Below, piece after piece: positions 22,710 through 33,486 of a stretch of DNA of 64,000 nucleotides (position 1 is the first letter of the stretch; each line of letters opens with the position of its first letter). The notes under the pieces are model-generated. The model worked only from the letters and a program-made list of their open reading frames with translations. It was not told where the DNA came from and did no database searches. Source of the DNA: Mycoplasma sp. CAG:776 (lineage in GTDB: Bacteria; Bacillota_I; Bacilli_A; RF39; UBA660); NCBI GenBank assembly GCA_000438195.1, contig FR903078.1, positions 73,845 through 137,844 of the forward strand. Direction: 5' to 3'. The position numbers and the translations under genes were made by a program.

Positions 22710-23258
22710 TTAATTTAAACTAGCAATTAGTTCATCTTTTTTCATTGCAGAGTAACCTTTAACTCCTTGTTCTTTAGCAATAGCTTTAAGTTCGGTTAAA
22801 GTCATTTTGCTGTAGTCTTTTTCTTCTTTTACTAATTTGCTTGCTTCAGCTTTAACTTCTTTTTTGGGTTCTTCTAATTTTTTAGTTTTAGCAGGTACTT
22901 TACCATTTAAGGCTTCCTTAGAAATTTTAACTAATTCAGCGAAAGCACTAGGATTATCAATAGCCATTTCACTTAACATCTTACGATTGATTTCAATTCC
23001 AGCCTTAGCTAATCCATCCATAAATTTAGAGTAACTAATTTCGTTTTCACGACAAGCTGCATTAATTCTTGTAATCCATAATTTTCTAAAATTACGTTTA
23101 TTTTGTTTTCTGTCTCTAAATGCATAAACTCCACTATGGAATACTTGTTCTTGTGCTGTTTTATATAATCTATGTTTGCTTCCAAAATATCCTTTAGCTT
23201 CTTTTAATACTTTTCTTCTTCTTGTTTTGGAAACACTTCCACCTTTAACTCTTGTCAT
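22710..23258 (-). CDS. rplT: 50S ribosomal protein L20 with a roughly 64-aa C-terminal extension
   Basis: The N-terminal ~118 aa are canonical L20 ([24 protein letters not shown]...). An extra Lys/Glu-rich linker follows, ending in [31 protein letters not shown]. Confidence 0.95.
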
Positions 23259-24226: not shown

Positions 24227-24661
24227 CTAACTTAGCCTTTCTTTTACCATTTTACTAACCAAAGACATATCTGCATTGGTAATTCTAGTATTTAGTTCTT
24301 TCATAATTAATCCCATATCCTTCATACTAGTAGGATTTATTTCTTTAAATACTTGATCAATTATTTTACTAATTTCATCTGCTGTCATCTCTTCAGGTAA
24401 ATAAACACTTAAGATTTCTATCTCTTGTTCTAGTTTGGCAATTTCTTCATTTTTATTATACTTTGCAAACTCACTAATAGAATCCTTTCTTGTTTTTACT
24501 TGTTTTTTTATTACACTCATTACTTCATCATCATTAAGTTCATGCTTTTTACTTATAGAGTCTAATTGTAAAGCACTTTTTAGCATTCTTAAAACTGATA
24601 GTTTAAATTTATCACCATTTTTCATAGCCGTTTTTAAATCTTCAGCAATTTTACTATTCAT
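24227..24661 (-). CDS. GatB/YqeY-domain protein
   Basis: 144 aa; IAEDLKTAMKNGDKFKLSVLRMLKSAL is the typical YqeY N-terminus. Located downstream of rpsU, as in many Bacillota. Confidence 0.8.
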   Translation of the reverse strand: MNSKIAEDLKTAMKNGDKFKLSVLRMLKSALQLDSISKKHELNDDEVMSVIKKQVKTRKDSISEFAKYNKNEEIAKLEQEIEILSVYLPEEMTADEISKIIDQVFKEINPTSMKDMGLIMKELNTRITNADMSLVSKMVKERLS

Positions 24662-24670
24662 ATGATCACC

Positions 24671-24856
24671 TTAATAATTTCTATGCTTTCTTGCATTTTT
24701 AATTTGTTCTTTTTTTTCATTTCTTCTACGAACGCCTGGTTTTTCATAATGCTTTCTTTTCTTTAACTCTGAAGGGACACCGCTGCGGGCAACTTTTGTT
24801 TTAAATTTCTTTAATGCGCCATCAACATCTCCATTTTTAACTACTACTTTTGTCAT
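24671..24856 (-). CDS. rpsU: 30S ribosomal protein S21
   Basis: 61 aa; VVVKNGDVDGALKKFK...KHYEKPGVRRRNEKKE. Confidence 0.9.
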   Translation of the reverse strand: MTKVVVKNGDVDGALKKFKTKVARSGVPSELKKRKHYEKPGVRRRNEKKEQIKNARKHRNY

Positions 24857-24929
24857 TTACAAATCCCTCCCTTCATTTACTACAAATGATTATATCACCA
24901 AAGAACATGATAAGCAAGTTTTTTAGGCA

Positions 24930-25139
24930 CTAATTCACATTATTTTCTTCAATTTCTGGTATTATTTCTTCTCTTATTTCTAATTTTTGCTCTTTTAAAT
25001 CTTCTTTAATATCATTTTTTAAAATATTTAGAAAATTATTTTTATAATTATTAACTAATAACACTGTTAACATCATTAAAATAAAGATTAAAAATAAAGA
25101 ATAAACCATATAAGTAGCCATAAAACCTTTTTTATTCAT
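24930..25139 (-). CDS. Small single-pass membrane protein with an acidic C-terminal tail
   Basis: 69 aa; N-terminus MNKKGFMATYMVYSLFLIFILMML. It has its own extended -10 (TGaTATAAT) and RBS GGTGA just after the bacteriocin-operon terminator. Confidence 0.55.
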   Translation of the reverse strand: MNKKGFMATYMVYSLFLIFILMMLTVLLVNNYKNNFLNILKNDIKEDLKEQKLEIREEIIPEIEENNVN

Positions 25140-25166
25140 ATTATCACCATATGTTTTTATTATATC

Positions 25167-25196
25167 AAAAAAGGGTTCTAAGAAAAACCCTTTTTT
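25167..25196 (-). terminator. Rho-independent terminator ending the bacteriocin operon
   Basis: AAAAAAGGGTT-loop-AACCCTTTTTT perfect hairpin flanked by T/A runs. Confidence 0.8.
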
Positions 25197-25198
25197 AT

Positions 25199-25342
25199 TT
25201 ATTTTATTAAACGTTGGAGAGAGTATCCGATCATTTTACCTATTTCAATTGCTAAATCTAGTAATCTAGCAAAAGCATTAATTAGCGTTCCATTTATTGC
25301 TCCTCCATAAATTTTAATTAATTCATGATCATTTATTTTCAT
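25199..25342 (-). CDS. Double-glycine-leader bacteriocin precursor peptide 3 (47 aa)
   Basis: Hand translation gives MKINDHELIKIYGG|AINGTLINAFARLLDLAIEIGKMIGYSLQRLIK. RBS AAGGAG lies upstream. The leader matches the consensus at I-12, E-8, L-7, I-4, G-2, G-1. Confidence 0.8.
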   Translation of the reverse strand: MKINDHELIKIYGGAINGTLINAFARLLDLAIEIGKMIGYSLQRLIK

Positions 25343-25343
25343 A

Positions 25344-25481
25344 TTAGTTCTCCTTCGGATAAAAATATCCATAAATAACAGAGGCTATAAAGGTAATAGC
25401 AATAGCTATCCCTCCCAGTATTCCGGCAGCTGAAATTCCGCCATTTATATTATGTAGTTCATAATCATTCAAATGTTTCAT
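25344..25481 (-). CDS. Double-glycine-leader bacteriocin precursor peptide 2 (45 aa)
   Basis: Hand translation gives MKHLNDYELHNINGG|ISAAGILGGIAIAITFIASVIYGYFYPKEN. RBS AAGAGG lies upstream. The leader has L-12, E-8, L-7, I-4, GG. The mature part has GxxxG-type motifs. Confidence 0.85.
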   Translation of the reverse strand: MKHLNDYELHNINGGISAAGILGGIAIAITFIASVIYGYFYPKEN

Positions 25482-25482
25482 T

Positions 25483-25614
25483 TTAACCTCTTAAATTCTT
25501 TAACGAGCAAATGGCTTTTACTAACGAAATTACACTAGATATTAAGTTAGTAACAACACTAAAAAGGCCTCCTCCACTACAGTTTATCAATTCTTTATTT
25601 TCCATTCTTTTCAT
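25483..25614 (-). CDS. Double-glycine-leader bacteriocin/pheromone precursor peptide 1 (43 aa)
   Basis: Hand translation gives MKRMENKELINCSGG|GLFSVVTNLISSVISLVKAICSLKNLRG. A strong RBS (GAGGAGG) starts right after the accessory-gene stop. Confidence 0.8.
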   Translation of the reverse strand: MKRMENKELINCSGGGLFSVVTNLISSVISLVKAICSLKNLRG

Positions 25615-25628
25615 AAGTTCCTCCTCTT

Positions 25629-26039
25629 TTAAAACATTTTATTCTTTATTTTTGTTATAATTCTTTGTTTATTATAATAAAAATTTAAATCTACTATTTC
25701 ATTATTATTTAAATTATTAGAAGTAGATAATACCATTTCATAATATGTTGTATAATTTTGCTCATTTGCTTTTAATTCTTTTTTTATGATTTCATATTTT
25801 AAATTTTTATTATTGATTGTAATTAAAGAAAAATCTAAGTTGGTTGGTATAGCGGTAGTAATTGTACAAATATTGGTACAGCTAACAATTCCTTTAGCTT
25901 GATAGTGATCATAGACTTCTACTTTATTCATATAAGATACTAGAGTCAATAGAATTACAATAATAAAAATGACTATTAAAAATCCCAGTTTTGGTTTTAT
26001 TTTTAAGAATGCTATTTTATTATTAAAAATATCTAACAT
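25629..26039 (-). CDS. Membrane-anchored accessory protein of the bacteriocin exporter (very short, HlyD/LcnD position)
   Basis: 136 aa; one N-terminal TM (LGFLIVIFIIVILLTLVSY) then a predicted beta-rich domain. Overlaps the ABC gene by 7 nt. Confidence 0.6.
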   Translation of the reverse strand: MLDIFNNKIAFLKIKPKLGFLIVIFIIVILLTLVSYMNKVEVYDHYQAKGIVSCTNICTITTAIPTNLDFSLITINNKNLKYEIIKKELKANEQNYTTYYEMVLSTSNNLNNNEIVDLNFYYNKQRIITKIKNKMF

Positions 26040-28087
26040 AACTCTCCTAGACGAATAATCTTTGTAAATTTATCCTCAACATTTTTATGGGTAACATAAA
26101 TTAAAGTATTATTTTTAAAATACGTAAAAATATTGTCTAAAATTTCTTTTTCCATATTAACATTCACTTCACTTAATGCTTCATCTAAGATAATTATCTT
26201 AGCCTTTTTTAGCAAGGCTCTTGCTAGAATAATCCTTTGCTTTTCTCCTCCACTTAAGTTATTTAGAGAAGCATTTATAATAGTGTTATATCGATTTGGT
26301 CTTTTATTTATGATTTCTTCTAATTTACAAATTTTACATACTTGTTTAAATTTTTCATCTGAAATATTTCGGAAGCATATGATATTCTCGCGAATTGTTC
26401 CTGTAAAAAGTTTTTCATTTTGGCCTACATATAGGATATTTTCTCTGATAGCTTTTAAACTATAATCACATTCACTCGTATTATTAAATTCTATATTTCC
26501 AGAATAAGTGCCTAAACTTCGATAAATAAGTTTGCAGATGGTACTTTTACCACTTCCCGATGGACCACTTAACAAAACTTTTTCTTTACTTTTTATAGCG
26601 AAATTCACTTTATTTATTATTTTATTAAATAAATCATAAGAATAAGTTAAGTCTTTTACTTCAATATTTGGATCTATTAAATGCTTTAACCCTCCTTGTT
26701 CTTTTTCTATTTCAGTTGCTAAAAATTCACTTAATTTACTAAATGAGGCTTTTAAATAATTATATTTTGGCATTAAATCAACTAATTTCTTTACTGGATT
26801 AAATAAATAGAGAATAACACTATTAAAAGTAACTAAACTTAATAGTTCTAATTCCCCTTTATAAATTAAATAAATTCCTAAAGTTGTAATCATAAATAAT
26901 CCGACTTCATAAATAAAATTCTTCAATAGTTCAATTATATTTAAAATGCTCATAAAAGAAAAATTGCTTTTTAGCATTAATATTAATTTATTTTCAATTC
27001 GGTATATAAATTCTCGAACTAAATTTAAATTTTTAATACTAAAATTCATGTCTACATTTTCAATTAATGTTGTGTTGAAATTTGTTGTTGTTTCTATATT
27101 CTCTTTTACTTTATGATAGATCACTTTACTAAATAAAAGTCCTACTATTAAATAAATAATAATTATAAAACAAAGAAGAAAAAATAATTTACTATTTATT
27201 AAAAATAGTGTTACTATCGCACCAAATATCAAAATCGTATTTAAAATTAAGGTAGCAAAAATTTCAGAAAATAAATTTTTTGTATTACTTAATTCATCAA
27301 TTCTGGTTACTATTTCTCCAGTTGTACGATTTTGAATAAATTTCAAAGGGAGTTTAAATATATGCTCTAAGAACATAGAAAATAATTCGGTGTCTAGATT
27401 TTTGTTAAGATAATTGAGGTAATAGGTTTTTATATAATTTATGATAATTTTAAAAAGAAGTATAATAAAAAAGAGAATTACGATAAATTTAATGAATTTA
27501 GCTTCTTGCCCTTCTTGAATACAAGATATACTTATTTGAAAATAAAAATTTCCAATTATGGTTAAAAGCATTAAAACAATATTAGTAATTATGATTTTTA
27601 AAAACAAATATTTATGTTTTATTAATAATTTACCAAATAATCCTACTATGGAAAGTTCTTTGGTATATCTTAATATATTATTACTAGGTGTTGCTAATAT
27701 TAAAATGTTATCCCAAATATTCAGAAATTCCTGAATTAACATTTTTACTTTTCCTTTAGCCGGGTCCATAAGATAAACATATTTTTCGTTTGCTTTATAG
27801 ATTACTACAAAATGTTGTAGCCCATTTGTTAGTTGAACATGAGCTATAGCAGGGAAATAAATATTTTCGTCTAAAATGTTTTCTGCTTTTACTCCAATCG
27901 CATCAAATCCATAACCACATAAAGCTTTTATTATATGAAATGCTGTTGTTCCGTTCATATTTGTACAAGTATCATCCCTTACTTTCTCTAATGGAACATA
28001 GCCACCATAATACTTTAAAATGGATTCTATACAACAAGCGCCACAATCTTTTAAATCACGTTGTTTTACTACTTCTATCTTAGGCAT
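26033..28087 (-). CDS. Bacteriocin-processing ABC exporter with N-terminal C39 peptidase domain
   Basis: 684 aa; C39 catalytic Cys in QRDLKDCGACCIESILKYYGG, with His (LQHFVVIYK) and Asp (YLMDPAKG). Six TM helices. Walker A GPSGSGKST, signature LSGGEKQR, Walker B IIILDEALS. Confidence 0.92.
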   Translation of the reverse strand: MPKIEVVKQRDLKDCGACCIESILKYYGGYVPLEKVRDDTCTNMNGTTAFHIIKALCGYGFDAIGVKAENILDENIYFPAIAHVQLTNGLQHFVVIYKANEKYVYLMDPAKGKVKMLIQEFLNIWDNILILATPSNNILRYTKELSIVGLFGKLLIKHKYLFLKIIITNIVLMLLTIIGNFYFQISISCIQEGQEAKFIKFIVILFFIILLFKIIINYIKTYYLNYLNKNLDTELFSMFLEHIFKLPLKFIQNRTTGEIVTRIDELSNTKNLFSEIFATLILNTILIFGAIVTLFLINSKLFFLLCFIIIIYLIVGLLFSKVIYHKVKENIETTTNFNTTLIENVDMNFSIKNLNLVREFIYRIENKLILMLKSNFSFMSILNIIELLKNFIYEVGLFMITTLGIYLIYKGELELLSLVTFNSVILYLFNPVKKLVDLMPKYNYLKASFSKLSEFLATEIEKEQGGLKHLIDPNIEVKDLTYSYDLFNKIINKVNFAIKSKEKVLLSGPSGSGKSTICKLIYRSLGTYSGNIEFNNTSECDYSLKAIRENILYVGQNEKLFTGTIRENIICFRNISDEKFKQVCKICKLEEIINKRPNRYNTIINASLNNLSGGEKQRIILARALLKKAKIIILDEALSEVNVNMEKEILDNIFTYFKNNTLIYVTHKNVEDKFTKIIRLGELC

Positions 28088-28241
28088 CTATTTTCCTCCC
28101 TTCACTACTATTTATTACCCCTTTTTTATTCATTTCCTTTATTTTTTTAGAATATGGGTTCATATTTTAAAAGGAGTTCCACCGTTCGACAATTTTTGCA
28201 TTTTTTTTGGATATACTATACAACTCGAAAGGAGGAATACT

Positions 28242-28691
28242 ATGCAAGATGGCATGTTAATTTCAAAGCTTAGATCAGAGCACAATCTATCACAAAAAGA
28301 TATGGCACGATTTCTTAAAGTAACTTTATCATCTTATAAACTTTATGAAGCCAATATTCGACCAATGAGAATAGAAGAATTAAATCAACTTAGTAATTAT
28401 TTTAAAATTTCTTTAAATACTTTACTGGGATTAAGTAAGAATATAAATGAATTTGGTCCGTTTGATCTTGATTTTAAATATTTGAAGTTTAGTCTAAAAT
28501 ATGTACGTAAAATACATAGAGTTACTCAGCAAGAACTGGCAAAAGAATTTAAAATTTCTATCCCAACTATTCATCGATATGAGAGTAATCCACAGAATTT
28601 AAAAGTAGATTATTTACATTTCTTTGCTACTAAATTTCATGTATCAATTGATTATATTTGTGGTAAAACACTCAAAAAAGAAGTACTCTAA
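28242..28691 (+). CDS. Tandem (double) XRE-type HTH transcriptional regulator
   Basis: 149 aa from ATG 28242 (RBS AAAGGAGG). There are two HTH_3-like repeats (NLSQKDMARFLKVTLSSYKLYE..., VTQQELAKEFKISIPTIHRYE...), each ending in a S(L/I)(N/D)(T/Y).(L/C)G motif. The track ORF from 28020 adds an implausible N-terminus. Confidence 0.8.
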   Translation: MQDGMLISKLRSEHNLSQKDMARFLKVTLSSYKLYEANIRPMRIEELNQLSNYFKISLNTLLGLSKNINEFGPFDLDFKYLKFSLKYVRKIHRVTQQELAKEFKISIPTIHRYESNPQNLKVDYLHFFATKFHVSIDYICGKTLKKEVL

Positions 28692-28693
28692 GA

Positions 28694-29851
28694 TTATTTG
28701 AGTACTTCTTTTAATAAAACTTCATCATCTTTAAATAAATTATATTTTTTTACTATAAATCTAAATATCACTTTTAATAAAGCAATGCATGGTGTTGCAA
28801 TAATCATACCAACAATACCAAAGTAATGCGCAAATACTAGTAACCCAATCATAATTGTTACAGGATGTAGATGAGTTGTTTTGCTCATCACAATTGGTTG
28901 TAAAACATAATTTTCTAATAATTGAACTACTACACAAATGATTAAAACTGCAATTCCTGTAATGGTTCCTTGACTAAAGCCTACAATAACTGCAGCCGCT
29001 CCACCAATGTATGGTCCAATATATGGAATTAAATCGGTTAAGCCACAGAATAATCCGAATAATAACGGTGCATTTAATCCTGTTATTGCAAAACCAATTG
29101 TATCACCTACAAATACCATAAACGCGACTAAAAGAGTTCCACTTATGGTCTTTCTTACTTCTTTGCCAATATCAGTTATTAATACTTCAATTTCATATTT
29201 ATTCTTGTTTGGTACTAATTTTAGAAAATGCTTTGTAATTGCGTCAAAATCAAACAACATATATAGACCAATTACTAAACTTATTAAAATAGTTCCTAAT
29301 CCAGATGCCAGACTTCCTAATATTCCTATTAATGACGTTGGAAGAGAATTAGTAAAGTTAATTAAATAGCCACCTACGCCATCAAATAAATTATCTTTAA
29401 ATCCTGTTAAATCTATGCCACTAATAGATATTTGATTAATAAAATCATCTATAAAAGTACTAAATTTGTCCAAAATAGATGGAAGAGTTGCAATTAATTC
29501 GTTAATTTGCGTATATAAAGTTGGAACTAACATCCTTAAAAAGAAATAAATAAATAGTAAAAATACAGTATATACTAGTAAACTTCCTACGATCCGAGGA
29601 ATTCCTTTTTTATTTAACTTCTTGACAATGGGATTAAATAACCACGCAATGACAAATCCAATAAATAATGGAGCTAAAACTTTAAGAAAGGTCAAAAGAA
29701 TATTCCAAACATTTAAATTTTTTAGAATAATTGTACCACACAAAACAATTGCTACTATCATAACAATATATAATAATTTTAAAATCTTTTTAGTTAATGA
29801 TACAACTTCATTTACTTCTTTATTGTCAATTTCCTTAAAGTTTTTCTTCAT
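28694..29851 (-). CDS. AI-2E family transporter (PerM/YhhT-like permease)
   Basis: 385 aa; 8 TM and the typical C-terminal motif LIPYIGPYIGGAAAVIVGF...LENYVLQPIVMSK. Confidence 0.85.
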   Translation of the reverse strand: MKKNFKEIDNKEVNEVVSLTKKILKLLYIVMIVAIVLCGTIILKNLNVWNILLTFLKVLAPLFIGFVIAWLFNPIVKKLNKKGIPRIVGSLLVYTVFLLFIYFFLRMLVPTLYTQINELIATLPSILDKFSTFIDDFINQISISGIDLTGFKDNLFDGVGGYLINFTNSLPTSLIGILGSLASGLGTILISLVIGLYMLFDFDAITKHFLKLVPNKNKYEIEVLITDIGKEVRKTISGTLLVAFMVFVGDTIGFAITGLNAPLLFGLFCGLTDLIPYIGPYIGGAAAVIVGFSQGTITGIAVLIICVVVQLLENYVLQPIVMSKTTHLHPVTIMIGLLVFAHYFGIVGMIIATPCIALLKVIFRFIVKKYNLFKDDEVLLKEVLK

Positions 29852-29852
29852 A

Positions 29853-30383
29853 TTAAACCCTCATTAATTCTGTTTCTTTTTCTTTAAATATCTCATCTAT
29901 TTTCTTATTATATTCGTTTACTTGTTCTTGTATGTCATTTAAAAATGTTTTTTCTTCATCTTCTGGTAATTCTTGCTTTTTTATTTCAGTATTTGCATCT
30001 TGTCTAATATTTCTTAGAGCTACTTTGGCTTCCTCACATACTCCTTTGGCCATTTTAACATATTCTTTTCTTTTTTCTTCTGTAAGCTCTGGAACCGTTA
30101 AAATAATCATTTCACCATTGTTTACAGGGGTAATACCAATATTTGCTTCATTAATTGCCCTTTCAATTTCTTTTAACGCACCTTTGTCAAACGGTTTAAT
30201 CATTAAACTACGTGCTTCTGGCACAGTAATATTGGCTAGAGATTGAATTGGAGTAGGTACTCCATAATAACTAGCATTAATTCCATTTAACATAGCTGGG
30301 TTTGCTCTTCCAGCTCTAATGTTTAATAGTTTATTTTCTAAACTTTCAATTGTTTTTTTGAACTTTAATTCTGTTTCGTCCAT
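29853..30383 (-). CDS. frr: Ribosome recycling factor
   Basis: 176 aa; IRAGRANPAMLNGI...YYGVPTPI...ITVPE, PELTEEKRKEYVK. Confidence 0.93.
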   Translation of the reverse strand: MDETELKFKKTIESLENKLLNIRAGRANPAMLNGINASYYGVPTPIQSLANITVPEARSLMIKPFDKGALKEIERAINEANIGITPVNNGEMIILTVPELTEEKRKEYVKMAKGVCEEAKVALRNIRQDANTEIKKQELPEDEEKTFLNDIQEQVNEYNKKIDEIFKEKETELMRV

Positions 30384-30458
30384 ATTTTTAATATTCCTCC
30401 TAAAATTGATTTTATACTATCATTATACTTAAGTTCTTATACTTTTACAAGTATAACC

Positions 30459-30962
30459 TTATTCTAAAGTTTCTATATATTCTAAAAAACTGACCATGTT
30501 TTTTTGTTCTACACCTCCTGGTATTCCAGCTATGAATTGATTATTTTTAAAAGCAAGAATAACTGGTGTGAAATTTATATAGTTCGTTATATCAGGATAG
30601 CTAGTAAGTAGATCCTGATAAGCTAGTGTTTTTTCTATACCGCTTTCTTTTTCTAAATAATAAAGATTAAACTTATAAACATCTTTTAAATCGGATAATA
30701 TAGTGCTTATTTTTTTAGTTGCTTCTTCTTCTTCCTTTCCTATAAATATTAGAATAGTTTCTTCTTCCTCTATGATATTTTTTAGTTCTTCTATAGCAAC
30801 CTTTTTGGCATAAGATATATCAAATTCATAAATCTGCTCTATATTTTGCTGTTCCGTTTCTGATGTTTCTACATTTTCTTTAATAAAAAATAATTCATAA
30901 GTTATAAATATTACTATCCCTATTACAATGGTAATTAAGCTAGTTAACAATAATCTTTTCAT
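30459..30962 (-). CDS. Membrane-anchored thioredoxin-fold-like protein lacking CxxC
   Basis: 167 aa; N-terminal TM. Pattern ...ILIFIGKEEEEATKKIS...FTPVILAFKNNQFIAGIPG...MVSFLEY resembles a Trx fold with the redox site replaced. Confidence 0.5.
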   Translation of the reverse strand: MKRLLLTSLITIVIGIVIFITYELFFIKENVETSETEQQNIEQIYEFDISYAKKVAIEELKNIIEEEETILIFIGKEEEEATKKISTILSDLKDVYKFNLYYLEKESGIEKTLAYQDLLTSYPDITNYINFTPVILAFKNNQFIAGIPGGVEQKNMVSFLEYIETLE

Positions 30963-31546
30963 TCTAAATATTCCTCAAACATTGAATTAAATAAATTATA
31001 TTTGGCACCTGCTCTATACTCGTTCCAATAAATTTCTGGTGTTAGATTTCCCCTTATAAAAGCTGTTTCATTATCAAATGCTATTACTTTACCATCTTTT
31101 ACTATTACTAGAGTTGGAGCATATATCTCTTGAGTACCATCATCTAATGTTATTAAATAATTTGATAAATTTAAAACTATGCTTTGATAAGTTGCATTAT
31201 GATTTTCCCGATCTTCATAAAAATCATAATATAATATCTCTTTTATTCCTGCATCTTTGGCAGCCTCATTTAAAATATTGGCATAATAGCCACTCCAAAC
31301 ATTTTCTGGATATCCCATAAAAATAATTGCATCTTTTTTTAATTCGGTAGAAACTTCTACAGCGTTTACATACTTGAATACATTTTCTTTATTTACATTA
31401 ACATAGTCTTGATCAAATTTTTCATTATCCACTACTACTTTTTTGTCAAAATCTCTTGTTCCTATTACAATAAATCCAATTATAATTGCTATGAACGTTA
31501 ATCCTTGTAATACTCTTTTTATTTTCTTCTTCATGTTTTTCACCAC
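30959..31546 (-). CDS. Membrane-anchored thioredoxin-fold-like protein lacking CxxC
   Basis: 195 aa; N-terminal TM. ...AIIFMGYPENVWSGYYANILNE...APTLVIVKDGKVIAF... parallels the CxxC paralog at 52522-53115. Confidence 0.5.
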   Translation of the reverse strand: MVKNMKKKIKRVLQGLTFIAIIIGFIVIGTRDFDKKVVVDNEKFDQDYVNVNKENVFKYVNAVEVSTELKKDAIIFMGYPENVWSGYYANILNEAAKDAGIKEILYYDFYEDRENHNATYQSIVLNLSNYLITLDDGTQEIYAPTLVIVKDGKVIAFDNETAFIRGNLTPEIYWNEYRAGAKYNLFNSMFEEYLE

Positions 31547-31646: not shown

Positions 31647-32519
31647 TTACTTAATTTGATTCATTACTTCTTCAGCAAAGTTTTCATTTCTTTTTTCCAT
31701 ACCTTCGCCTACTTCATAACGAATCATTGTTTTAATCTCACCATTATTTTTTGCAACATAATCTTTAACGCTTACATCGCCATCTTTTATAAATGGTTGC
31801 TCTGTTAAACAGATTTCTTTATAGAATTTTTTAATTCTTCCTTCTACCATTTTTTCAGCTATGTCTGCTGGTTTTCCTTCAGAAATAGCAAGTTCTTTTT
31901 GTACTTTTCTTTCATTTTCAAGTACTTCCTCAGGAACATCTGCTGGAAAAACATAACTTGGGCGCATTGCTGCTGATTGCATAGCAACATCTTTAGCTAC
32001 ACTCTCATTTGCTCCTTTTAATACTGTTAATACAGCTATTTTTCCACCCATATGTAAGTATGAGCCAAATACTTCATCATCATTTTTTTCTACTACTTCA
32101 AGACGACGTAATGATAATTTTTCACCAATTTTGGCTGTTTTAGCAATAACTAAATCTTCAATTGTTCCTTCATCAGTATTTACTTTTAAAACATCTTCTA
32201 AAGACTTGGCATCACTCTTTAAAACAGCATTACCAATTGTATCAATCATACTAGTAAATTCTTCATTTTTACTTACAAAGTCTGTTTCGCTATTTACTTC
32301 TAAAATTACAGCTTTATTTCCATTTATATAGATATTTGCAAGTCCCTCAGCAGCGATACGCGATTCTTTCTTAGCACTTTTAGCAATACCTTTTTCTCTT
32401 AGCCAATCAATACTTGCAGTAATATCTCCATTACATTCATTTAAAGCTTTTTTGCAATCCATCATTCCAGCTCCGGTTTTTTCACGAAGCTCTTTTACCA
32501 TTGCGGCAGTAACTTCCAT
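31647..32519 (-). CDS. tsf: Elongation factor Ts
   Basis: 290 aa; N-terminal UBA-like AAMVKELREKTGAGMMDCKKAL and dimerisation domain motifs. Confidence 0.95.
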   Translation of the reverse strand: MEVTAAMVKELREKTGAGMMDCKKALNECNGDITASIDWLREKGIAKSAKKESRIAAEGLANIYINGNKAVILEVNSETDFVSKNEEFTSMIDTIGNAVLKSDAKSLEDVLKVNTDEGTIEDLVIAKTAKIGEKLSLRRLEVVEKNDDEVFGSYLHMGGKIAVLTVLKGANESVAKDVAMQSAAMRPSYVFPADVPEEVLENERKVQKELAISEGKPADIAEKMVEGRIKKFYKEICLTEQPFIKDGDVSVKDYVAKNNGEIKTMIRYEVGEGMEKRNENFAEEVMNQIK

Positions 32520-32541: not shown

Positions 32542-33486
32542 TTACTTTAATGCACTAATTAATTCATCTTTTTTCATTGTACTATAACCTTTTATACTAC
32601 GTTCTTTAGCTATAGCTTTTAATTCTGTTAAAGTCATATCTTCTAATGCTTTTTCATTTGATTCAGTTACTTCAACTTCTTTTTCTTCTACAACTTCAAC
32701 AGCTTTTGTTTCTTCTTTTCCTTTTGTTTCTTCTTTAATTAACTCATCCATTTTAATCTCTTTTGCTGACTTTTTATCCTCTTCTGTTACATAATCTACC
32801 ATTTCTAAATTACGAGATTCACAAATAGCATTATTAAGTACACCAAGAATTACTTTAACACTTCTAACAGCATCATCATTTCCTGGAATGACAAAATCAA
32901 CATCATCTGGATCACAGTTTGTATCTACAATACCAAATACTGGTATTCTAAGTTTTCTTGCTTCTCTAATTGCATTAATTTCTTTTTTAGGATCTACTAT
33001 AATTAAAGCATTTGGAAGTTTATTCATATCACGAATACCACATAAAATTTTATTTAACTTATCGTATTCTTTCTTTAATCCAATTACTTCTTTCTTTGGT
33101 AAAACATCAAATTTACCATCACGTTCCATATTTTCAATTTCTTCAAGTCTTTTTACTCTTCTTCTGATTGTTCTGAAATTAGTTAGTGTTCCTCCTAGCC
33201 ATCTTTCAGTTACATAATAAGACTTACTTCTTTCTGCTTCTTCTTTGGCAGCTTCTTGAGCTTGTTTTTTAGTTCCAACGAACAAGAAAGTACCTCCGTT
33301 ATCCGCAATTTTTTTCACTTCAACATAAGCTTCTTCAAGAAGTTTTGTTGTCTTTTCAAGATCGATAATATAAATATCTTCTCTTGCTCCAAAAATGTAT
33401 TCTTTCATCTTTGGATTCCATCTTTTTGTTTGATGTCCAAAATGAACACCTGCTTCTAATAAATAACTCATAGAAACAACGGCCAT
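32542..33486 (-). CDS. rpsB: 30S ribosomal protein S2 with a roughly 80-aa C-terminal extension
   Basis: The first ~235 aa are canonical S2 ([19 protein letters not shown]...). An acidic linker follows, ending in [31 protein letters not shown]. Confidence 0.95.

Follow-up and report, generated by a model that had tools for sequence, protein, structure and literature searches.

A probably old, inherited Rho_N-type tail on ribosomal protein S2 of Mycoplasma sp. CAG:776, most likely a tethered nucleic-acid-binding domain

The N-terminal helix bundle of transcription termination factor Rho assists RNA binding (PMC11347177). A motif of the same kind occurs in the Arabidopsis protein RHON1, where the last 40 amino acids (the Rho-N motif) bind fragments of 16S and 23S rRNA and regions of mRNA in gel shift experiments (PMC3458557). 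The SAP, LEM and HeH motifs of eukaryotic chromatin and inner-nuclear-membrane proteins are likewise small two-helix motifs that bind nucleic acids. In the literature on Rho_N and helix-extended-helix domains and on ribosomal extensions of Acholeplasma or Mycoplasma, we found no paper on Rho_N tails of bacterial ribosomal proteins, and the architecture is already known as an automatic database listing (PF07498 with PF00318, and PF07498 with PF00453). Here we describe such a tail at the C-terminus of ribosomal protein S2 in Mycoplasma sp. CAG:776, a feature that constitutes a conserved ribosome decoration made from a known domain family. On balance we favor the view that the S2 tail is an old, inherited Rho_N addition that has undergone no recent copying and that most likely acts as a tethered binder of RNA or of nucleic acid more generally.

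The genome under study (labeled G000) is a draft assembly of 1.3 Mb in 33 contigs with an estimated completeness of 94% and a GC content of 27.5%; the window, meaning the whole stretch of DNA that was analyzed, covers 64,000 nucleotides of it. The rpsB gene lies on the minus strand at 32542..33486 and encodes ribosomal protein uS2 with 314 amino acids plus a stop codon. Residues 9-223 match positions 1-215 of the 216 positions of the Pfam profile Ribosomal_S2 (PF00318) with 324 bits. An ORF of 290 amino acids (tsf; 31647..32519, minus strand), identified from sequence as EF-Ts by its typical N-terminus, starts 23 nt downstream of rpsB and thereby gives the gene an ordinary rpsB-tsf operon context. 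Based on the full-length profile match and this context, the rpsB product is a bona fide uS2. Its conserved core comprises residues 1-234 (32785..33486, minus strand), is covered by the Pfam match, and has pLDDT values mostly between 75 and 96 in an AlphaFold2 model built from a 15-sequence alignment. Residues 235-314 constitute an extension of 80 amino acids, in which a 45-residue acidic linker precedes a 35-residue module. The linker (residues 235-279; 32650..32784, minus strand) is rich in Glu, Lys and Val, carries a net charge of -7 and is predicted to be disordered, with pLDDT below 50 for residues 243-278. An acidic C-terminal extension of about 80 amino acids ending in the same way as L20 had been described in the sequence-only reading of this DNA, and that description is accurate: the ORF has exactly the sequence quoted, is 314 amino acids long and is supported by Pfam.

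The terminal module (residues 280-314; 32545..32649, minus strand) has a helix-extended-helix character of the Rho_N type. Residues 281-313 of S2 match Pfam Rho_N (PF07498) with 42.3 bits and residues 150-180 of L20 do so with 41.5 bits, the curated gathering threshold for this family being 24.9 bits; judged by these profile scores, both tail modules are bona fide members of Rho_N. The AlphaFold2 prediction places helices at residues 286-295 and 306-313, separated by a short turn (pLDDT 85-88), giving a predicted helix-extended-helix fold, and the closest solved chains by sequence match are the N-termini of Rho factors (PDB 8hsj and 7oqh). In a 15-sequence alignment of S2 the columns of the core are mostly invariant, and within the module the invariant residues (n = 13) are L286, L289, K290, A293, K294, K299, G300, Y301, S302, M304, K305, K306 and L309; the linker retains almost no invariant residues and differs in both length and sequence among the congeners in the alignment and at their loci. 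Two other identities were considered for the module and rejected. The SAP domain (PF02037) scores 16.7 bits for S2 (E 0.006) and 18.7 bits for L20 (E 0.001), below its threshold of 23.9 bits, and these weak matches cover the first helix only. Neither protein is a transcription termination factor Rho: apart from Rho_N, each has just its ribosomal domain, without the OB fold PF07497 and the RecA-type ATPase that follow Rho_N in that factor.

The partner copy within the window terminates ribosomal protein bL20. The rplT gene (22710..23258, minus strand) encodes 182 amino acids plus a stop codon, of which residues 3-109 match Pfam Ribosomal_L20 with 155 bits, and infC and rpmI lie upstream of it. 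Its Lys-rich linker (residues 119-147; 22818..22904, minus strand) has a net charge of +4 by charge count and a sequence that differs among congeners, and its Rho_N-type module occupies residues 148-182 (22713..22817, minus strand). The rplT and rpsB tails are located on the same strand at a distance of 9.8 kb. The interval between infC-rpmI-rplT and rpsB-tsf (24227-31546) contains unrelated genes, all but one of them on the minus strand, including an ORF of 684 amino acids at 26033-28087. In several other genera of the family (G141:C3:55058-56170, G169:C5, G098:C1, G086:C1, G073:C3 and G148:C25), ORFs of the size of L20 and S2 that end in Rho_N are located on one strand at a distance of about 1 kb; going by ORF sizes, rplT there appears to be directly upstream of rpsB. 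The two genes have the opposite order in the studied genus, where they are separated by the 9.8 kb mentioned above.

A six-frame Pfam search of the genome recovered exactly three copies of Rho_N, with 46.7, 44.3 and 32.9 bits. The third and lowest scoring of these forms the C-terminus of FtsH on another contig, outside the window (G000:C32:114579-114680; locus L003, 1501-1605). Its tail has the sequence KTVTELREEAKAKGIKGYSKMTKEELEEALKEE, a more acidic module than those of S2 and L20. The sequence-only reading had correctly seen that S2 and L20 have a module in common and had suggested looking for more copies elsewhere in the genome; the search added one, on FtsH, which that reading had not recognized, nor had it assigned the module to the Rho_N family.

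Beyond this genome the module is found on a wider range of proteins. Twenty other Rho_N matches were fetched from a sample of the class, and their hosts, named from sequence, again include S2 and L20. Others are a membrane protein with an EAL-like appearance, a membrane AAA protein, proteins of 425-564 amino acids with internal copies of the domain and a C-terminal membrane helix, and small proteins of 104-145 amino acids. A recurrent host type is a multi-pass membrane protein of approximately 255-305 amino acids that ends in Rho_N (loci L076, L079, L087, L089 and L090), in which the domain is borne on a cytoplasmic, Lys/Glu-rich, coiled-coil-like stalk. A protein of 518 amino acids in another family of the class (L082; G083:C2:23500-28400) has, by eye, S1-type repeats with Rho_N at its end, so that the tail would there be attached to a third ribosome-associated protein. 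Taken from these sequence assignments, the module appears to be a promiscuous terminal add-on of ribosomal and membrane proteins.

Two proteins with which such a tail might be connected were also sought in the studied genome. No match to the Rho OB fold PF07497 was present anywhere in the 94%-complete assembly, and no multi-domain ribosomal protein S1 (rpsA) was found in it; S1 domains occur there only singly, in proteins of about 720 amino acids and in one of 115 amino acids. The idea that the tail is left over from a lost rho gene or stands in for it was rejected, since family f4 includes relatives in which a true Rho coexists with a tailed L20, which makes the two independent. A simple replacement of S1 by the S2 tail is unlikely because the same tail is present on L20, on FtsH and on the S1-like protein of G083.

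These results can be assembled into a mechanistic proposal. S2 in this organism would be an ordinary uS2 with a C-terminal addition acquired long before the species arose, consisting of an acidic, disordered tether of 45 residues and a Rho_N (SAP-like) helix-extended-helix domain of 35 residues. The same domain would also end bL20, there on a Lys-rich tether, and FtsH, at its cytoplasmic C-terminus. Small-genome gut Bacilli and Acholeplasma-like bacteria would have inherited all three tails throughout their lineage, and in some congeners of the studied species, as well as in a further family, gene conversion would episodically overwrite those of S2 and L20. On the ribosome, the domain may serve as a small binding head that extends on its tether from the solvent side of both subunits. 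By analogy with the characterized Rho-N motifs we infer both ligand and role, and the most likely ligand of this head is RNA, either rRNA or mRNA, or nucleic acid more broadly. Charge is a point against a nucleic-acid binder: the net charge is only about +1 per module and the linker of S2 is acidic, values which are unusual for a protein that binds nucleic acids non-specifically. The presence of the module on many membrane proteins also counts against it, being equally compatible with a protein partner or with an address function.

These same two features lead to the strongest alternative, which we regard as possible although unlikely, namely that the module acts in protein-protein contacts, as a docking or address tag, through which a common partner or self-pairing would co-locate FtsH and several membrane proteins with the two ribosomal subunits. 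Ribosomes might for example be brought to the membrane or to a quality-control protease. Such a function would suit the mixture of hosts, in which S2, L20 and the S1-like protein occur alongside membrane proteins that bear the module on a cytoplasmic tail (FtsH, the EAL-like protein, the AAA protein and the multi-pass proteins of about 280 amino acids), and it would suit a module that is nearly neutral. The equivalent helices of Rho pack against its OB fold, a precedent for contact with protein, and the resemblance of S2 and L20 tails within individual genomes is what would be expected if both had to fit one evolving partner. However, experiments on a C-terminal Rho-N motif in isolation exist only for RHON1, where it binds RNA (PMC3458557), and the FtsH tails form a separate and more acidic clade that may not share the ligand of the ribosomal tails.

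A more far-reaching possibility, and one that we consider improbable, is that the Rho_N tails represent a lineage-wide addressing system in which S2 and L20, their tails held identical through gene conversion, would bind a single common ligand together with FtsH and the membrane proteins. Candidates for this ligand are a specific feature of RNA or DNA, the domain itself, or an OB-fold protein with which a Rho-like RNA-binding site would be reconstituted in trans. If such a system exists, translation, membrane insertion and proteolysis would be physically organized together in small-genome bacteria that lack Rho and S1.

The DNA-level resemblance of the S2 and L20 tails calls for a different explanation from the one first offered for it. 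The module stretches 32545-32637 and 22713-22805 are identical at 72 of 93 nt, or at 78 of 99 nt when the preceding codon and the stop codon are added. The 93-mer from S2 was slid across both strands of the whole genome, with 2.6 million positions giving a mean of 28.5 matches (sd 4.7), and at least 58 of 93 matches were obtained at three places only; besides the S2 stretch itself, these are the tails of L20 (72) and FtsH (61). The nucleotide likeness of about three quarters over 93 nt on which the sequence-only reading was built is therefore genuine and above chance. From it, that reading had proposed a duplication or gene conversion between rpsB and rplT, 10 kb apart. Taken as a recent event in this genome, in which the L20 tail was copied onto S2 or converted its tail, this origin now appears very unlikely. 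It would account for the two stretches being the best mutual nucleotide matches in the genome and lying on the same strand at the distance given above, and relatives do show conversion between these very genes. The same codon is used at 16 of the 22 degenerate positions with an identical residue, which slightly exceeds the number expected from codon usage, taken either genome-wide (12.4 +/- 2.2) or from five translation genes of the window (13.0 +/- 2.2).

A cross-species control, in which every S2 tail was compared with every L20 tail among 20 species of the genus, removes most of the force of these points. Tails of S2 and L20 taken from different species have a mean nucleotide identity of 78.1% (sd 5.4), and the pair within the studied genome, at 77%, is no different; its own L20 tail ranks only 8th of 20 in likeness to its S2 tail. 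The same-codon fraction of 0.73 compares with 0.717 (sd 0.106) between species, i.e. z = 0.07. In the 60 nt upstream of the module the pair is 42% identical vs a background of 48%, and the likeness thus ends at the module without extending into the linker. The two modules moreover differ at 7 of 31 residues, among them diagnostic S2-type residues that are common to the seven related species described below. With identity, codon sharing and linker all at background, recent conversion between rpsB and rplT in this genome was rejected.

The pattern of diagnostic residues is informative with regard to descent. The studied species and seven close relatives have a common, S2-specific type of tail with the junction LED, with KERG or KTRG, and with the ending ISALK or INALK, whereas the L20 tails of the same eight species are mostly of the DYS, KEQG type, the exception being G009 with DYD and KEKG. 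The tree of S2 cores is compatible with these eight species forming one clade (61/90 support; 60% of bootstrap trees). From this S2-specific signature, the sequences indicate vertical descent of the S2 tail in the group, apparently without overwriting. At greater depth, codon sharing between species is 0.72 for S2 and L20 tails, 0.64 for S2 and FtsH and 0.61 for L20 and FtsH, the expectation from codon usage being 0.57-0.59, and the higher value for S2 and L20 hints at an older homogenization inherited by the whole genus. The likeness of the two tails in the studied genome would then be the product of conserved residues, strongly AT-biased codon usage and possibly an old homogenization that predates the species group.

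Gene conversion between the two genes is nevertheless real in some relatives. In G001 the 3' ends of rpsB and rplT contain a tract of 164 nt with 91.5% identity, of which 68 nt belong to the linker, and the codons are identical at 23 of 23 positions. Corresponding tracts extend over 170 nt with 85% identity in G004 and over 142 nt with 86% identity in G013, the linker again being included in the latter, and in G030, a member of another family, approximately 125 nt of the two tails are nearly identical. The tail of a genome's own L20 ranks first for its S2 tail in G001, G004, G017 and G020. Across the genus, the mean same-codon fraction within a genome is 0.763 vs 0.717 between species (permutation p 0.0018), and this excess persists when the five clearest cases are left out (p 0.018). 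The proposal of a duplication or gene conversion linking rpsB and rplT thus survives in part: the tails are homologous copies of one module, so that a duplication or domain transfer took place at some time, and conversion is documented in relatives, but the DNA likeness in the studied genome is at background level and does not serve as evidence for either.

A phylogeny of the module separate from the ribosomal cores, which had also been suggested, was constructed and agrees with this history. The FtsH tails form a clade of their own (100/98 support) with the S2 and L20 tails intermixed, and the S2 and L20 tails of G030 are sisters (100/97). The tail and S2-core trees comprise 105 and 405 columns, respectively, and are poorly resolved; the 105-nt tail tree is mostly unresolved, and only its well-supported parts, i.e. 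the FtsH clade and the G030 pair, are used here. FtsH tails of the congeners remain in their separate clade and show no exchange with those of S2 and L20. The repeated exchange between the S2 and L20 tails suggests that these two are functionally interchangeable.

The tails are also widespread. Tailed S2 is present in 22 congeners, that is in all those with an assembled rpsB 3' end, and the tail is in frame and intact; each of these species also has a tailed ORF of L20 size, and many have a tailed ORF of FtsH size. In a class-wide sample, Rho_N matches were recovered from 15 of the 15 sampled genera of the family and from families f4, f7, f11, f13, f14, f16, f17 and f19, with many of them on ORFs of the size of S2, L20 or FtsH. 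The host was confirmed as S2 in f2, f7, f13, f16 and f17 and as L20 in f4, f6, f7, f11, f13, f14 and f16, the L20 tail alone being confirmed in f4, f11 and f14. Precomputed Pfam architectures list 710 database proteins that combine PF07498 with PF00318 or PF00453. The identical S2 protein of 314 amino acids is on record from hundreds of contigs, with clusters that were seen on 193 and on 66 of them. Among the named carriers are uncultured 'Tenericutes' and 'Bacilli' gut MAGs, Acholeplasma sp. CAG:878, Clostridium sp. CAG:1193, Candidatus Fimihabitans and the cultured Paracholeplasma vituli 92-19. In a relative with a genome of 0.6 Mb (L071; G040:C2:7300-9000), the S2 gene contains in-frame TGA codons, which probably encode Trp as in the Mycoplasma-type code, and the Rho_N module is in frame downstream of the S2 core.

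This wide distribution, together with an invariant module next to a drifting linker, points to S2, L20 and FtsH tails that are old, lineage-wide fusions maintained under purifying selection, as far as can be judged from sequence comparison. An assembly artefact, the condition under which the original observation would have lost its meaning, or else a gene-calling artefact or a decaying and functionless appendage, can practically be dismissed given the identical protein on hundreds of independent contigs, a tail that is in frame and intact in all relatives with an assembled gene end, module residues that stay invariant across species while the linker drifts, and a module that is confidently folded in the AlphaFold2 model.

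The significance of these tails lies in a putative folded and tethered binding domain that is present on one protein of each ribosomal subunit as well as on the FtsH protease, and that is conserved through the gut Bacilli and Acholeplasma-like lineage; its conservation through the whole lineage implies that it is under selection. Identification of the ligand would show how RNA is recruited, or ribosomes are positioned, in small-genome bacteria that here have neither Rho nor multi-domain S1, and the cultured carrier Paracholeplasma vituli makes this question testable. For the studied genome the value of the analysis is mostly corrective, in that the nucleotide likeness of the two tails is what selection and codon bias provide. 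What is new is the specific negative for a recent conversion between S2 and L20 in this genome, and older exchange may have occurred in the ancestry of the pair.

Comparison with known systems places the S2 and L20 tails nearest to the Rho N-terminal helix bundle in family and to RHON1 in arrangement. With the Rho bundle they have in common the Rho_N family, the predicted helix-extended-helix fold and the signature G-x-S-x-M-K-K-x-E-L-I; unlike in Rho, the module is C-terminal on unrelated proteins, follows a long disordered tether and is unaccompanied by the Rho OB fold or ATPase. SAP, LEM and HeH motifs are alike in having been recruited widely to the ends of diverse proteins, membrane proteins among them, but the S2 and L20 tails fall below the Pfam cut-off for SAP and the likeness is at the level of clan or fold only. 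The ribosome extensions seen in cells of Mycoplasma pneumoniae (bioRxiv 10.1101/2021.12.18.473270) are similarly clade-specific terminal enlargements of conserved core proteins in small-genome, Mollicutes-like bacteria. The S2 and L20 tails would differ from extensions of that type in ending in a recognizable folded domain, in having this domain in common between one protein per subunit and FtsH, and in its exchange by gene conversion. By analogy, Arabidopsis RHON1 is the best functional counterpart of the ribosomal Rho_N tails: it too carries a Rho-N motif of about 40 amino acids at the extreme C-terminus of a non-Rho protein, following an acidic, highly charged stretch (PMC3458557). RHON1 is a plant chloroplast protein that partners with RNase E and is not ribosomal, so the comparison does not imply orthology and its binding data are not simply transferable, but it provides the closest functional model for a Rho_N domain at the end of S2 and L20.
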